From a virus (lineage: Duplodnaviria > Heunggongvirae > Uroviricota > Caudoviricetes): a DNA stretch of 12,878 nt. Every line of letters begins with the position of its first letter. Position 1 is the first letter of the stretch. The stretch is taken from IMG/VR virus record IMGVR_UViG_2681813225_000019. One strand, 5' to 3'. The notes under the pieces are model-generated. The model had not been told where the DNA came from. It saw only the letters and a program-made list of their open reading frames with translations, and did not search any database. Positions 4,124-8,298 of the stretch are shown piece by piece. The position numbers and the translations under genes were made by a program.

Positions 4124-4396
4124 ATGTCTCATACAATCCGTGATAAACAGAAACTGAAAGCGCGTGCCAGTAAGATTCAGGGCCAGGTCGTGGCGCTCAA
4201 GAAAATGCTCGACGAGCCGCACGAATGCGCTGCAGTTTTACAACAGATTGCTGCTATCCGTGGCGCGGTAAACGGTCTGATGCGGGAAGTGATTAAAGGT
4301 CATCTGACGGAACACATCGTTCACCAGGGGGATGAGCTAAAACGTGAAGAAGATCTGGATGTCGTTCTGAAGGTGCTGGATTCATATATCAAATAA
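4124..4396 (+). CDS. rcnR: Ni(II)/Co(II)-responsive transcriptional repressor RcnR (CsoR/RcnR family), 90 aa
   Basis: 90-aa ORF ([38 protein letters not shown]...) recognised as RcnR; divergent from rcnA. Confidence 0.92.
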
Positions 4397-4486: not shown

Positions 4487-4537
4487 ACCAAACGACTCGG
4501 GGTGCCCTTCTGCGTGAAGGCTGAGAAATACCCGTAT
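4487..4537 (+). promoter_or_regulatory. 5' portion of the thiM TPP riboswitch aptamer (thi-box), truncated at an island junction
   Basis: AACCAAACGACTCGGGGTGCCCTTCTGCGTGAAGGCTGAGAAATACCCGTAT matches the E. coli thiM aptamer as I remember it, including the CUGAGA thi-box core. The expected continuation (CACCTGATCTGGATAATGCCAGCG...) is absent; island-type sequence follows. Confidence 0.7.
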
Positions 4538-4666
4538 TTTCTCATTTAGTGTTTTTTGTGGTTCGGGGTTGTTCGTGGTTGTTTGGATATATATTTGATA
4601 TTAAATGGAATGTTGCGTTTTCTTGTTTGTTATTGTTCGTCGTTGTTCGTAGAGCTTCAACGAAAT

Positions 4667-4690
4667 GTGTGGTCAGTTGTGTGGTCAGTT
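4667..4690 (+). repeat. Perfect tandem direct repeat, 2 x 12 bp (GTGTGGTCAGTT), 36 bp upstream of the int start
   Basis: GTGTGGTCAGTT at 4667-4678 and again at 4679-4690. Confidence 0.6.
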
Positions 4691-4725: not shown

Positions 4726-5946
4726 GTGGGAAAAGCACTAAACAAACTGAGCGATTCGACATTAAAAAAATTGGCGGCTGTCCAGGCAGAAAAAGAGCGT
4801 TTTTACTCCGACGGGGGCGGGCTGGAGATTAAACACTCAAAAGGCGGAAAATTAACCTGGTATTTCCGGTACCGAACGGGAGGCCGTGAGGTTGCCGCAG
4901 AGCGGTTAAAGCTGGGGGCTTACCCTGAATTGTCGCTGAAAGCTGCAAGGGAAAAACGCGCACAGTGCCGGGCATGGCTGGCTGAGGGTAAAAACCCCCG
5001 TTATGAGTTGTGCGCCACAGTACAGGAAGCGCTAAAACCCGTTACGGTGAAGGAGGCGATTAACTACTGGCTGGAGGAATATGCGAAGGATAACCGCAAA
5101 GACTACATAAAGCTGGTGCAACGTATGGATAAGCACATCATTTGCCATATAGGGGCAATTCCTCTTGATAAATGCGACACAAGGCAGTGGATCGCATGTT
5201 TTGACCGTGTACGAAAAAAAGCACCAGTAGCAGCGGGGCACGTCATGCAAACCTGCAAACAGGCGCTAAAGTTCTGCCGCAGGAGACGCTACGCGTTCAG
5301 TAATGCCCTGGACGATTTGATCGTCAGCGATGTGGGTAAGAGAGCAGAAATTCGCGAGAGGGTGCACAGTAACAGCGAATTAAAGGAAATTTTACGCGCT
5401 ATTGATGGTGATGTGTTCGCGCCTTACTACAGCGCGTTAATGCGCTTGCTGATTGTGTTCGGGTGCAGAACTGCAGAGGTCAGACTTTCAGAGATCAAAG
5501 AATGGGATCTGAAAGAAATGTTGTGGACAGTGCCAAAAGAGCACAGCAAAACGAAGGTAACGATATTCAGGCCAATCCCCGATGGCATTTTGCCGTTCAT
5601 TCAGAAGCTGGTGGATCAGAACCGGCATACAGGGTTATTGCTCGGAGAACTGAAAAAAGATACCACGGTAGCGCAATATGGGCGAAATGCGCATAAGCGG
5701 CTTAACCAGGAACATTGGTCACTGCATGACTTTCGCCACACGTTTACAACGATGCTGAACGATTTAGGTGTCGATCCGCATATCGTGGAGCACATCACAG
5801 CGCATCAGATGCCCGGTCAGCAAAAAACCTATAACCATTCACGCTATTTACAGGCGAAGCGGGACGCTCTGAATCTGTGGGTTGAGCGCCTCGATGTGCT
5901 GGCTGGAAATCATGAAAATATTGTTATGCTGAAGGTGGCCAAATGA
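4726..5946 (+). CDS. int: Tyrosine-type site-specific integrase (P4-like family), 406 aa
   Basis: GTG start at 4726 with AGAGGA seven nt upstream. C-terminal catalytic signature present (LHDFRHTF gives the HxxR box; YNHSRY gives the catalytic Tyr region). N-terminus resembles P4-family integrases (LSDSTLKKL). Adjacent to the island junction. Confidence 0.93.
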   Translation: MGKALNKLSDSTLKKLAAVQAEKERFYSDGGGLEIKHSKGGKLTWYFRYRTGGREVAAERLKLGAYPELSLKAAREKRAQCRAWLAEGKNPRYELCATVQEALKPVTVKEAINYWLEEYAKDNRKDYIKLVQRMDKHIICHIGAIPLDKCDTRQWIACFDRVRKKAPVAAGHVMQTCKQALKFCRRRRYAFSNALDDLIVSDVGKRAEIRERVHSNSELKEILRAIDGDVFAPYYSALMRLLIVFGCRTAEVRLSEIKEWDLKEMLWTVPKEHSKTKVTIFRPIPDGILPFIQKLVDQNRHTGLLLGELKKDTTVAQYGRNAHKRLNQEHWSLHDFRHTFTTMLNDLGVDPHIVEHITAHQMPGQQKTYNHSRYLQAKRDALNLWVERLDVLAGNHENIVMLKVAK

Positions 5947-6716
5947 AATTACCTAAAAGACTCTATTATCCGTTACCTGAAGCGGCAGAAAAGTTAGGCT
6001 GTGCAATAAAAGATCTTTATCATTACGCATATATAGGTGCTCTTAATATTTCTGTATATATACCAAAAATTGATGCTAAAAAATTCAATTTTTCATTATG
6101 TCATTTTATCAATGGTTGTAATGAGGAAGAATTAATAAAATATCCTTTCAATGATGAATCTGCTGTTTTTGGAAGTAATTTTACAGTTGGTTTAACTGGT
6201 GACACTGAATTTTTAGATAGTGCCATTATTGGTCCTGTAGGGAATTCTATCAAATGTTATTATGTTAGCAGCTTATCAGGGTTTTATTATACTCCGGCAT
6301 ATGTTTTTGCTGATGTCGAATTTAGCATGAGACAATATATAAAATGTTCTCATCTTACGAATAAGTATGGTGATGATAATCTCATGTATGTTTTTTGTAA
6401 GGGTGGTTATGAATTTGATGTTAACTATTTGTGTGTGATGGCTAGTGATTTAGATAATATAAAAAATACGGGAGACTTCCCGAAGATAACAGAAGATAGC
6501 CCAAAAGCATCGTCAAAAAGGAATGAGGTTATTTACTCTTTAATTAAACTTATTCCAGAAATGGGTGATGTAGACCTGGACACGGAATCATTACCTAAAA
6601 TAGCAGATTTAATTGATTCTATAGCTGCATCCAGAGGGATAGAATTTCCAAAAACACATTGGCAGACATGGCAAAAGTATTTGGGGCGTGAATCTCAACA
6701 AAAACGTAAAAAGTGA
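5943..6716 (+). CDS. Hypothetical protein, 257 aa, AT-rich accessory/cargo gene of unknown function
   Basis: Uninterrupted ORF whose ATG overlaps the int stop (ATGA at 5943-5946). Visibly more AT-rich than flanking int and alpA. N-terminus (PLPEAAEKLGCAIKDLYHYAYIG) looks like a short helix-turn-helix; the remainder has no motif I recognise. Confidence 0.8.
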   Translation: MKLPKRLYYPLPEAAEKLGCAIKDLYHYAYIGALNISVYIPKIDAKKFNFSLCHFINGCNEEELIKYPFNDESAVFGSNFTVGLTGDTEFLDSAIIGPVGNSIKCYYVSSLSGFYYTPAYVFADVEFSMRQYIKCSHLTNKYGDDNLMYVFCKGGYEFDVNYLCVMASDLDNIKNTGDFPKITEDSPKASSKRNEVIYSLIKLIPEMGDVDLDTESLPKIADLIDSIAASRGIEFPKTHWQTWQKYLGRESQQKRKK

Positions 6717-6744
6717 TATCACGTGCTGGTAGTGTGATATCACA
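6713..6744. promoter_or_regulatory. Two copies of the 10-bp palindrome GTGATATCAC, 12 bp apart; candidate operator
   Basis: GTGATATCAC at 6713-6722 (overlapping the stop of the 257-aa ORF) and at 6735-6744. Confidence 0.4.
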
Positions 6745-6771
6745 CAAACGGCGTTTTACTACCGCCTAGAA

Positions 6772-6807
6772 TCGTCCTCGTTCGGCAACGTTCGAGGACG
6801 TTTTTTT
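6772..6807 (+). terminator. Terminator-like hairpin plus T7 run ending at the alpA start codon; the 3' arm carries the alpA Shine-Dalgarno
   Basis: TCGTCCTCG (6772-6780) ... CGAGGACG (6793-6800) followed by TTTTTTT (6801-6807) and ATG at 6808. GAGGA within the 3' arm is the only SD-like sequence for alpA. Confidence 0.5.
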
Positions 6808-7032
6808 ATGAATCAAAATACACAATTTCAATCACTATCAGATCGCGTAATCCGTGAGGATGAATGCCGTAAGTTAACAGGAGTGTGCCGCACTACACGC
6901 TACGAACTGGAGAAAAAAGGGAATTTCCCGTCACGCCGTAATCTGGGTGGTCGTTCAGTAGGTTGGCTGCTTTCCGAGGTTATGGAATGGGTTAAAAGCC
7001 GGGATCGTATTAATTCAGGCAAGGCAGCGTAA
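6808..7032 (+). CDS. alpA: AlpA-family phage regulatory protein / excisionase-like HTH regulator, 74 aa
   Basis: Small ORF with the AlpA-like C-terminal pattern (GGRSVGWLLSEVMEWV) and a central HTH (CRKLTGVCRTTRYELEKKGNFP); positioned between the int-proximal cargo and the replication module. Confidence 0.88.
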   Translation: MNQNTQFQSLSDRVIREDECRKLTGVCRTTRYELEKKGNFPSRRNLGGRSVGWLLSEVMEWVKSRDRINSGKAA

Positions 7033-7143
7033 AGGGGGGCATATGACACATAAAACAAAGGCGACCGCAGAGGGCCGCCAGTGGCATAACACTAAACTTG
7101 AGCATATCCAGAATACCAGGTTGTTGGCTGGTGGGCAATGCAA

Positions 7144-7320
7144 TCAGTCTGGTTCAGTTCGTTGCCATAACTGCGAAGCTCTCTCCTTTGATGAGTATTC
7201 TTTAAGGTACTTCTCAAGGGCAAAAGAACACGGCGCGAATCGTTCTGATTCATGCTCTTTCTTTCTGAGTCGTCTTTTTCGTGCAGGTGATGTTTTTTTG
7301 GTTGATTCTTCGTTGGTCAT
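7144..7320 (-). CDS. Possible small basic protein, 58 aa (below the cut-off of the supplied ORF track)
   Basis: Hand-translated minus-strand ORF, ATG at 7320 to TGA at 7146-7144: MTNEESTKKTSPARKRRLRKKEHESERFAPCSFALEKYLKEYSSKERASQLWQRTEPD. It lies 57 nt downstream of the RHH-like gene. No clear SD, so this is weakly supported. Confidence 0.3.
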   Translation of the reverse strand: MTNEESTKKTSPARKRRLRKKEHESERFAPCSFALEKYLKEYSSKERASQLWQRTEPD

Positions 7321-7377
7321 TGTGTGCGCCTGTAAAGCAATGCGCCGTAGTACCTCACACCACGGCGCTGGTGATGG

Positions 7378-7557
7378 TTACTCCTGCTCTTTGGCCTTGC
7401 GGCGCTGGCGGCGTTTGATTTCGCCTTTAACGGCAGTAACTATAAATTGCGCTTTGCTTTCACCTTCATCTAAATTTTTTTCTAAGTCTGCAACAACATC
7501 ATGCGGGAATCTGGCATTTAACTGTTGCGACTTATTATTTGTTGAACCTGTTGCCAT
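7378..7557 (-). CDS. Ribbon-helix-helix (CopG/Arc-like) small DNA-binding protein, 59 aa; candidate island repressor
   Basis: Minus-strand ORF from the internal ATG at 7557 (SD GAGAGGA upstream): MATGSTNNKSQQLNARFPHDVVADLEKNLDEGESKAQFIVTAVKGEIKRRQRRKAKEQE. The pattern fits an RHH fold (strand QLNARFP, then two helices). The 114-aa extension in the ORF track is not protein-like. Divergent from the replication operon. Confidence 0.55.
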   Translation of the reverse strand: MATGSTNNKSQQLNARFPHDVVADLEKNLDEGESKAQFIVTAVKGEIKRRQRRKAKEQE

Positions 7558-7740
7558 TACTGAATCCTCTCTAAGTTGGTGCGATTCAGTATACACAAAA
7601 AAATTCAGAGAAAAAGGCTTGAAGTGCGATTCACTTGCTGATAGGTTAAAAACAGATGGTGCGATGCACCAAATAACAACGCCCCGCAGTGCGGGAACAC
7701 ATACGGGGCGTCTAACCAACAACGTAAACTAGGAGCCGTT
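7558..7740. promoter_or_regulatory. Divergent control region between the RHH gene and the replication operon, with inverted repeats
   Basis: 9-bp inverted repeat TACTGAATC (7558-7566) / GATTCAGTA (7585-7593) spanning the RHH gene SD. GTGCGATTCA occurs at 7579-7588 and 7623-7632; TGGTGCGAT at 7577-7585 and 7657-7665. Further hairpin-like segments at about 7658-7670 and 7693-7706 were read by eye. Confidence 0.45.
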
Positions 7741-8298
7741 ATGGTTGCCGTAAATCATATACCACACCTTGTACACACACAAACGGCCTTTGTGTGGCGT
7801 TTTCTGGCCCTGAATATCGGAGAAAAAAACCAGTTGATCGCCAGTGTCGAAAATAGCTATGATTCCCGCGCACCTCATAAAACGGGTGCCGGGATTGGCG
7901 TCCTGGGCAAAACTGAAGCGCATAACACGCGCCCCGCGTGTTTTTTTGTGCCGCATAGTCACACCTTATCAATGGTGGGCTGTACGGGGGCGGAGCAATC
8001 CGCGCCGGTTTCTTCAGTGTCCGGTTACGCCAACCCTGTACAGTCCGCCACCAGCGAAATTGGCGTTTCCGGTGGCGGTTATCTTAACCACACTGAGGAG
8101 GCTGCCAACATGGCTACTATCCCTACCCTTGTACATTCTCAAACCGCCTTTCTCTGGCGCTTTATCATCTTTGGCGCGTCAGAACATCAAATCATCCACG
8201 TAACCGCCTGGACGGAACGCGAAGCGCGTAGCCGTTGCCCGTCAGGTTGTGTTGCTGTATTCGCCGCCCGTATTCGTCAGGGGGTGTGCCATGCTTAA
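7741..8298 (+). CDS. First ORF of the replication operon; 185-aa ORF made of two tandem paralogous small-protein modules (possibly two genes, with the second starting at 8110)
   Basis: ATG at 7741 with AGGAG upstream. Module 1 (...HLVHTQTAFVWRFLA...) and module 2 (MATIPTLVHSQTAFLWRFIIF..., own GAGGAGG SD at 8095-8101 and ATG at 8110) are clearly related. The module-1 equivalent of the module-2 C-terminus (VAVFAARIR) appears in a different frame (RVFLCRIV). Confidence 0.5.
   Translation: MVAVNHIPHLVHTQTAFVWRFLALNIGEKNQLIASVENSYDSRAPHKTGAGIGVLGKTEAHNTRPACFFVPHSHTLSMVGCTGAEQSAPVSSVSGYANPVQSATSEIGVSGGGYLNHTEEAANMATIPTLVHSQTAFLWRFIIFGASEHQIIHVTAWTEREARSRCPSGCVAVFAARIRQGVCHA

Follow-up and report, generated by a model that had tools for sequence, protein, structure and literature searches.

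How is alpA of a Gram-negative phage-inducible chromosomal island (PICI) kept silent behind an integrase gene (int) that is transcribed constitutively, and by which route does a helper phage turn it on? The question is raised by the interval of 91 bases directly 5' of alpA in a stretch of DNA of 12,878 nucleotides (IMG/VR record IMGVR_UViG_2681813225_000019), called the window below, meaning the whole stretch that was analysed. Here, int overlaps a gene for a 257-aa protein (p257), the end of which lies in the first of two identical palindromes (O1 and O2); these are followed by a hairpin that holds the Shine-Dalgarno (SD) sequence of alpA. The best explanation, to which a joint probability of about 0.5 is assigned, is that the interval is a compact alpA control region of a PICI-type phage satellite, in which transcription from an operator-controlled alpA promoter would begin within the hairpin, and the hairpin would silence only the read-through from int.

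Gram-negative PICIs have AlpA as their master activator, and the protein activates its own expression (PMC6092414; PMC11773190; preprint on capsid-forming PICIs (cf-PICIs)); it is both necessary and sufficient to set the life cycle of these islands going. The route by which helper phages raise alpA transcription is given as unknown in papers from 2018 to 2025 (PMC6092414, PMC11773190, PMC10803314), and no repressor or sensor for Gram-negative PICIs has been identified in the papers searched. In the Vibrio island PICMI115, the int-overlapping gene (iolg) is essential for helper-induced excision, alpA given in trans stands in for the phage, alpA is part of an early phage-induced regulon and int is constitutive (PMC10803314). 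For the island EcCIEDL933, Cappable-seq places transcription start sites (TSSs) of alpA 44, 36 and 27 nt 5' of the start codon in most conditions and a TSS of int in nearly all conditions (PMC10469882 supplement). This island (L159, EDL933 1679500-1684500) contains neither the leader hairpin nor an int-overlapping gene, and a terminator-like hairpin, AAAGGCAT..ATGCCTTT, lies between its int and its alpA promoter; since EDL933 has no p257-type leader, its TSS tables provide analogous information only. A P4-like alpA at 0.318 Mb of EDL933 was considered as a comparator and set aside, its architecture being different.

A conserved hairpin sequesters the SD sequence of alpA

A preliminary description of the interval, made from the letters of the window, reported a GC-rich hairpin with a run of seven T in front of alpA and the only SD-like sequence of the gene, GAGGA, in the 3' arm. 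Both statements hold; the T7 tract directly abuts the start codon (Table 1), and no second SD sequence for alpA was found. The top of the hairpin is composed of a TT/TT internal loop, two inner C-G pairs and a GCAA loop, and AGAA/UUUU pairs extend it below the arms; the hairpin with this lower A/U extension has a predicted energy of −19.0 kcal/mol. The fold of 6700-6830 reaches −40.2 kcal/mol (z = −4.6), and 0 of 200 shuffles were as stable, in agreement with the RNA structure that had been anticipated. A simple terminator scan missed the hairpin solely through its loop limit of 8.

Leaders were gathered from E. coli genomes, IMG/VR contigs, contigs encoding p257 homologues and metagenomes, which gave about 20 diverged leaders; an AlpA search of the genome contigs returned just four distant, uninformative loci. 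The layout common to this alpA group includes a 7-bp stem, a 12-nt apical part and 6-9 nt to the ATG. The arm pairs differ between lineages: GTCCTCG/CGAGGAC, GCCCTCG/CGAGGGC, GCTCTCG/CGAGAGC, GCTCTCG/CGAGGGC (with a U-G pair), GCCCTTG/CGAGGGT (with two G-U pairs), GCTCCTG/CAGGAGC, CCACCTG/CAGGTGG and ACCCTTG/CAAGGGT. Among 14 distinct leaders, the 11-bp helix is paired in 95.5% of cells versus 32-54% for slid partners, both sides have changed in 7 of the 11 pairs, and 0 of 500 shuffles attain the score; RNAalifold recovers the same helix. The core 7-bp stem, scored in 16 leaders, is paired in 99.1% of cells when G-U pairs are counted and in 93.8% with Watson-Crick pairs alone, a difference that speaks for RNA of the plus strand. 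One position runs through the series C-G, U-G and U-A, a classical path of RNA evolution that is valid on the plus strand only; the hairpin is a plus-strand RNA structure that has been selected. Distant alpA alleles (MREINED type; L006, L007) have a weak A/U hairpin only, a small GGCG/CGCC stem is confined to the E. coli group, and the Rfam scan of the leader gave only sub-threshold noise.

The SD sequence always resides in the 3' arm, as GAGGA, GAGGG, GAGAG, AGGAG, AGGTG or AAGGG. Leaders with a U-tract are those of the window group, L004, L005, L137, L128 and L070; tails free of it are ATTAGATT in L118, ATATCCAT in L119, ATTTAAAT in L124, ATTTATCT in L138 and L139, AATCATTT in L140 and ATGCCCCA in L146. 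In the U-tract-free leaders, A-rich bases 5' of the stem pair with the tail, and a stem of 10-13 bp encloses the whole ribosome-binding site (RBS) as far as the ATG. Since the hairpin is kept where the U-tract is missing, occlusion of the RBS is the conserved function, and termination is specific to lineages. As an add-on in E. coli and Salmonella, this stem is also a predicted intrinsic terminator; in the window, the signature consists of an 8-bp stem with six G-C pairs, followed by T7. The earlier proposal of a dual gate thus stands as to the SD-occluding structure, which is borne out by covariation, and, in the window, as to the terminator signature and its position in the path of read-through; it fails as to termination being a conserved gate, because the T-run is missing in the U-tract-free loci listed above.

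The palindromes have the features of a paired operator

O1 and O2 are copies of GTGATATCAC with centres 21 bp apart, a period of two helical turns. The preliminary description was correct about two perfect palindromes, but the spacer, given there as 12 bp, measures 11 bp (6723-6733). Even with one mismatch allowed, the 12.9-kb window contains no match besides O1 and O2 (0.29 expected); two matches appeared in 9 of 200 shuffles, and in none of these were they adjacent. Palindrome-bearing relatives include L128, L070, L118, L119, L124, L137, L140, L142, L162-L175 and others, and at about 20 loci the sites are perfect or of the form GTGA-N2-TCAC. The pair is retained after p257 relatives of 30-52% identity, the spacers and flanks being unconserved; the spacer is usually 11 bp long, with the stop codon overlapped by site 1 in most cases. 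Their retention in relatives puts both the palindromes and the hairpin far beyond chance. Dyad symmetry, helical phasing and conservation above the surroundings are all present, and the palindromes appear, as had been suspected, to behave as a conserved protein-binding site.

The outer GTGA-N2-TCAC is constant and the central dinucleotide is free (TA, AT, AA or TT). Variant sites were found in Klebsiella (GTGAATTCAC), in L149 and L170 (GTGAAATCAC with GTGATTTCAC) and in L146 (GTGAAATCAC with GTGAAATCGC); several variants destroy the complementarity between the two sites, and the Klebsiella site 1 keeps its own dyad symmetry. This loss of inter-site complementarity points to a dimeric protein that reads the outer half-sites, and not to an RNA stem. 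In the distant branch L153-L155, the palindromes are replaced by TGGAATATTCCA-N9-TGGAATATTCC right after the stop codon, with the 21-bp phasing unchanged. The distance from the end of O2 to the stem is 28 nt in eight diverged lineages and 29-30 nt in the window group; of the sequence between them, only the last hexamer is conserved. No further GTGA-N2-TCAC sites, which would suggest autoregulation, were found near int. The idea that the sites resemble CRP, LexA and lambda operators, assessed only by visual inspection, was dropped, since the flanking bases are unconserved.

These data bear on the simplest alternative, an ordinary operon end, where the hairpin and T7 would be the int-p257 terminator, the palindromes would pair with each other in a 3' stabilising RNA stem and neither would regulate alpA. 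The minimum free energy fold does pair both palindromes, the window contains a canonical terminator signature, and EcCIEDL933 likewise carries a terminator-like hairpin between int and alpA. An RNA stem should covary, however, and both sites stay GTGA-N2-TCAC at 30% protein identity; the Klebsiella and L146 variants have no inter-site complementarity. Moreover, the hairpin survives without the U-tract, always with the SD sequence inside and at a fixed distance from the ATG, and its spacing from O2 is fixed as well. We regard this explanation as improbable.

Similar half-sites were seen elsewhere. Dense arrays of TGATATCA or GTGATATCAC repeats, with up to eight copies and a 12-bp spacer, occur in unrelated phages (L056, L060-L064 and about 40 other IMG/VR contigs, 35-60 kb), where they adjoin a promoter-like TTGACATATAA region; these arrays probably serve another regulator that has a similar half-site, as an iteron or operator cluster. 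In L149, at about 745-900, a p257 relative, GTGAAATCAC-N11-GTGATTTCAC and a hairpin that sequesters the SD sequence and has a 12-nt loop precede a gene whose product (MLNTIFTPPTPEQRR...) does not resemble AlpA.

p257 is the probable binder of the palindromes

The synteny int-p257-alpA is found in all relatives, and at every locus examined the palindromes occur solely after p257-family genes. They are absent from sister islands that have a DUF6387 gene or no gene between int and alpA. AlpA is 92-100% identical in these palindrome-free islands, which argues that AlpA is not the binder. Three candidates had been named in the preliminary description: AlpA, thus disfavoured (already the 92% identical protein occurs without palindromes), a ribbon-helix-helix protein, which turned out to be the host RcnR, encoded outside the island, and the 257-aa protein. 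The last alone co-occurs and appears to co-vary with the palindromes, and the strongest argument for it is that the palindrome changes together with the distant p257 branch. p257 is therefore the probable binder of O1 and O2.

No family match for p257 was found in Pfam, PHROGs, PADLOC or a PDB profile search, and neither a whole-protein Foldseek search against the PDB and BFVD nor hhalign of the N-terminus against AlpA gave a usable match; a relationship to the DUF6387 cargo of the sister islands was rejected on comparison. In the family alignment, both the N-terminus (LPERLYYPLPEAAEKLGC..DI.H) and the C-terminal part are conserved, and the middle is hypervariable. The AlphaFold 2 model has a predicted local distance difference test (pLDDT) score of 78 and contains an N-terminal beta-alpha-alpha-beta domain (about 90), a beta-rich middle and a helical C-terminal part. 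At the 50% level, the family of this N-terminal domain numbers about 400 representatives; of the best matches listed, nearly all are 230-320 aa long, with the domain at the N-terminus. The top Foldseek matches of the domain are nearly all helix-turn-helix (HTH) proteins (NtrC4, RcsB, DeoR, mycobacteriophage Xis, MerR-family MtaN and BmrR), with E values of about 2, which are non-significant, as expected for 35 residues. Pfam HTH_17 was matched by one close p257 member at a marginal 0.13 and by 1 of 66 distant relatives at 1.7e-6, the latter match not being localised to the N-terminal domain. With moderate confidence, the N-terminus is predicted to be an HTH.

A different binder, i.e., a helper-phage regulator or a host factor, with p257 as an adjacent accessory or excision protein, is rather unlikely. 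The weak HTH call, the branch L150-L152, which has the N-terminal domain of p257 and shows no palindromes, and the GTGATATCAC pairs in unrelated phage contigs would all suit such a protein. Those contigs differ in spacing and context, however; the restriction of the palindromes to p257-family genes speaks against it, and a factor shared by hosts or phages would not predict that the distant branch swaps its palindrome at the same phasing.

By analogy with the int-overlapping gene of Vibrio PICMIs, a phage-responsive activator is slightly favoured as the role of p257; a repressor or roadblock of the Stl type is slightly less likely. A more far-reaching proposal is put forward only tentatively: in a large group of Gram-negative PICIs, p257 may be both the missing master regulator and the protein that senses helper phages. 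Its N-terminal HTH would sit on O1/O2, the hypervariable middle would recognise a helper product, and this interaction would switch the alpA promoter, the fold-back hairpin leaving only this route to AlpA. Such a protein would be a functional counterpart of Stl from the pathogenicity islands (SaPIs) in Staphylococcus aureus, with an unrelated fold and an orientation co-directional with int.

A putative alpA promoter abuts the hairpin

The last hexamer before the stem, TAGAAT in the window, is elsewhere TACAAT, CAGAAT, CAAAAT, CAATAT, TTAAAT, AATAAT or TAAGAT. A −10-like hexamer abuts the stem in all 16 palindrome-bearing leaders, and positions −4 to −1 before the stem are A, A, A and T in 12-13 of the 16. 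The preliminary description had seen no separate alpA promoter; this hexamer, which adjoins the 5' arm and keeps a fixed distance to the palindromes, may give alpA a promoter of its own. The EcCIEDL933 TSS offsets, transposed to the window, correspond to 6764-6781.

In the model to which these observations lead us, O1 and O2 would be an operator pair for p257, centred at about −61 and −40, respectively, of the alpA promoter, and TAGAAT would be its −10 element, working without a −35 element as in activator-dependent promoters. The transcript of alpA itself would start about 7 nt past TAGAAT, where the 5' arm ends (about 6779-6780); without the anti-SD arm, it would be translatable. Only the read-through from the constitutive int-p257 operon would contain the complete hairpin, with the RBS of alpA buried in it; in E. 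coli and Salmonella this read-through would additionally be ended at the U-tract, and stray transcription could not trigger the island.

The hairpin also permits a reading in which alpA has no promoter of its own and regulated int-p257 read-through meets an attenuator, induction then proceeding through antitermination and opening of the SD sequence, with a controlling factor bound to the palindromes. A −35 element is not visible, the conserved hairpin and T7 end at the ATG, and AlpA is positively autoregulated and phage-induced, all as such an attenuator would have it. Antitermination, which the preliminary description had envisaged, gains no support from the leaders, however: several lineages keep the hairpin without a U-tract, and no conserved antiterminator or anti-sequestor pairing was found upstream, where 28 nt are unconserved. 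The alpA gene of EcCIEDL933 has its own gene-proximal TSSs, alpA of PICMI115 is induced early and int is not, and the 74-aa winged-helix AlpA of PICIs is unrelated to the Q-like AlpA of Pseudomonas. The attenuator is accordingly given a low probability, clearly below that of the operator-controlled promoter, although above that of a plain operon end.

A Q-like antitermination role of the PICI AlpA was checked and rejected. The protein has 74 aa, belongs to PF05930, and its only PDB match is 8c3t, a 73-aa AlpA-family protein; Pseudomonas aeruginosa AlpA has more than 140 residues and a different fold. The Q-like system is defined by an AlpA of Q21-like fold, with eight helices and a C-terminal HTH, and by an AlpA-binding element (ABE) between the −35 and −10; the PICI protein does not belong to it, and the shared name is a coincidence. 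Pairing of the leader with two island RNAs was likewise discarded: for the C4-like RNA the energy is −34.3 versus −34.1 ± 4.9 for shuffled targets, and for the IsrK-like RNA −41.0 versus −31.4 ± 4.7, which is about two standard deviations better, lies inside the shuffled range (minimum −44.0) and was judged not compelling.

Several points weigh against the operator-controlled promoter and p257 as its regulator. No −35 element was found for the alpA promoter, and the hexamer also pairs with the A/U tail, which explains its conservation without a promoter. In the branch P0019, L150-L152, whose C-terminus is different, the N-terminal domain is shared and the SD hairpin is kept, and palindromes are not visible; the co-occurrence of the palindromes with p257 could partly be linkage, as they are adjacent. 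To these are added the non-significant Foldseek matches and the marginal HTH_17 match of p257, as well as its comparison with iolg, which is one of analogy. For the GTTCG repeats described below, the co-variation of GTTCG and GTTCA between the left attachment site (attL) and the leader extends over about three independent lineages, with L128 discordant.

A GTTCG repeat in the top of the hairpin

GTTCG-N5-GTTCG occurs in this part of the hairpin and twice more upstream of int; the three matches in the window compare with 0.04 expected, and three were found in 0 of 200 shuffles. Other islands have the same distribution over attL and leader, with GTTCA at both places in Klebsiella and a mixed arrangement in L128. 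The repeat accounts for the fixed 12-nt apical length and for the TT/TT or AA/AA mismatches, which are retained in place of a longer stem. Its binder is probably Int (through arm-type sites) or AlpA (through excisionase-type direct repeats), and, in the proposed model, binding of either protein to the hairpin DNA would add feedback.

Among the islands, the apical 12-16 nt occur in two orientations, CGTTCG..CGTTCG and CGAACG..CGAACG (6781-6792 compared with L005, L128 and others); the AA and TT apical forms look as if they had arisen by inversion of the segment between the arms. Just upstream of int there is also a tandem of two TGTGGTCAGT copies (4668-4677 and 4680-4689), and related islands have GTTCA pairs and TGTAGTCAGT or GGTGTATCACG tandems at equivalent places; these pre-int repeats are probably Int arm-type sites and/or AlpA sites at the int promoter.

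Comparison with known systems

Each of the cis elements, the operator pair, the SD-occluding hairpin and the intrinsic terminator, is known in kind; their combination before alpA, the tie to the int-overlapping gene family and a candidate regulator are not described in the papers searched. The closest parallel to the hairpin is the fold-back inhibition of IS10 and IS50, reportedly worked out by Davis, Simons and Kleckner in 1985 and by Krebs and Reznikoff in 1986, where the element's own promoter is said to start inside a hairpin that silences read-through from outside, its transcript thus being translatable. As there, the hairpin pairs the RBS of a dangerous gene with upstream sequence found only in incoming transcripts. 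In the island, unlike in IS10 and IS50, the start inside the hairpin is a prediction, the read-through comes from the island's own int operon, and the U-tract adds termination in E. coli and Salmonella.

As regards the regulator, p257 is predicted to share with SaPI Stl of Gram-positive PICIs the position of an island DNA-binding protein next to int, a conserved binding part combined with a highly variable part, operators on the induction genes and a helper-phage target. Unlike Stl, which is divergent and a proven repressor, p257 is co-directional and int-overlapping, its operator covers its own stop codon, and there is no relationship of sequence or fold. The iolg of Vibrio PICMIs occupies the same position, with an ATGA overlap with int and upstream of alpA, and comprises many unrelated families of unknown function; its authors propose a role in the excision complex and not in alpA transcription, and operators or a leader hairpin are not described there (PMC10803314).

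Terminator insulators of mobile elements such as Tn916 (PMC11658703) also place a GC-rich stem and a U-tract between a constitutive unit and genes that are harmful if expressed early; in the island, unlike in these insulators, the terminator stem also occludes the SD sequence, and the U-tract is dispensable in related lineages. The location of an AlpA/Vis-family gene downstream of int-type functions and the IsrK-like and C4-like RNAs in the island recall P4 Vis and its late promoter PLL as well as the C4 immunity of P4 and P1; unlike in P4, the C4/IsrK module lies 1 kb downstream, without convincing pairing with the alpA leader. Sites of the P4 late-promoter type, TGT-N12-ACA, are absent.

The region offers mutable parts for the question of PICI induction: an operator pair, a candidate regulator from the enigmatic class of int-overlapping genes and an RNA safety catch, which would explain how constitutive int transcription does not fire the island. 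The open question of Gram-negative PICI induction thereby becomes directly testable. If the model is true, helper specificity would be predictable from the variable domain of the regulator, and the control region would offer a clean point of control when PICI-based delivery vehicles are engineered.

Gene content and surroundings of the island

Over the region, the window is 100% identical to the chromosomes of E. coli strain 10671 and O157:H7 MB41-1. A phage satellite of the PICI type begins at about 4540 of the window and runs onward, and the order int, p257, alpA, DUF4222, DUF927 primase is that of Gram-negative PICIs and cf-PICIs. The near-identical locus L001 extends into genes for SSB, PerC and a major capsid protein; since L001 carries the latter, the island is a relative of capsid-forming PICIs. 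The features are listed in Table 1.

Table 1. Features in and around the alpA control region, in window positions
Feature	Position	Strand	Description
rcnR	4124-4396		host nickel/cobalt repressor RcnR; outside the island
GTTCG-N5-GTTCG (two copies)	4561-4575 and 4635-4649		between att core and int
int	4726-5946	+	P4-type tyrosine integrase; Pfam Arm-DNA-bind_3 and Phage_integrase; upstream unit whose read-through would reach alpA
p257	5943-6716	+	257-aa gene; ATGA overlap with int; candidate palindrome binder
O1	6713-6722		GTGATATCAC; encloses the p257 TGA stop (6714-6716)
O2	6734-6743		GTGATATCAC; 21 bp centre to centre from O1
TAGAAT	6767-6772	+	−10-like; also 5' strand of the lower A/U extension
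Hairpin	6773-6800	+	5' arm CGTCCTCG (6773-6780); 12-nt apical part (6781-6792); 3' arm CGAGGACG (6793-6800)
GTTCG-N5-GTTCG	6780-6794	+	spans 5' arm end, apical part and first base(s) of the 3' arm
SD GAGGA	6794-6798	+	inside the 3' arm
T7 tract	6801-6807	+	terminator signature with the hairpin; also SD-to-ATG spacer; abuts ATG at 6808
alpA	6808-7032	+	74 aa; Phage_AlpA, Pfam PF05930, E = 3e-16; master activator/excisionase-type regulator of Gram-negative PICIs
Gene directly after alpA	7043-7732		229 aa; without family
IsrK-like and C4-like RNAs	7870-8055		Rfam
DUF4222 gene, DUF927 primase			downstream of the RNAs

The gene after alpA is highly variable; relatives in L137, L140 and L141 carry Phage_pRha, AntA or ORF6N (antirepressor-type) proteins at this place, and the cf-PICI literature likewise describes the position as variable. 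Rfam matches above the gathering score were obtained for IsrK (66 bits) and C4 antisense RNA (77.6 bits), together with a weak a1/b1 target match. The segment 7870-8055, upstream of an Icd-like gene, looks, from these matches, like an antisense immunity module of the P1/P4 type, and the 185-aa open reading frame (ORF) over the IsrK/C4 region (within ORF 7741-8298) is probably not a gene.

At the other end of the island, the 5' half of a thiamine pyrophosphate (TPP; thi-box) riboswitch, GGGGUGCCCUUCUGCGUGAAGGCUGAGAAAUACCCGUA, was found at 4488-4545 and stops at the island start; the Rfam match (21 bits, E = 0.038) is under the gathering threshold because it is partial. The satellite appears to be integrated within the thiM leader riboswitch beside rcnR. 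A shared core, CCGTATTTTC, recurs at the int-proximal end of related islands in different att sites.

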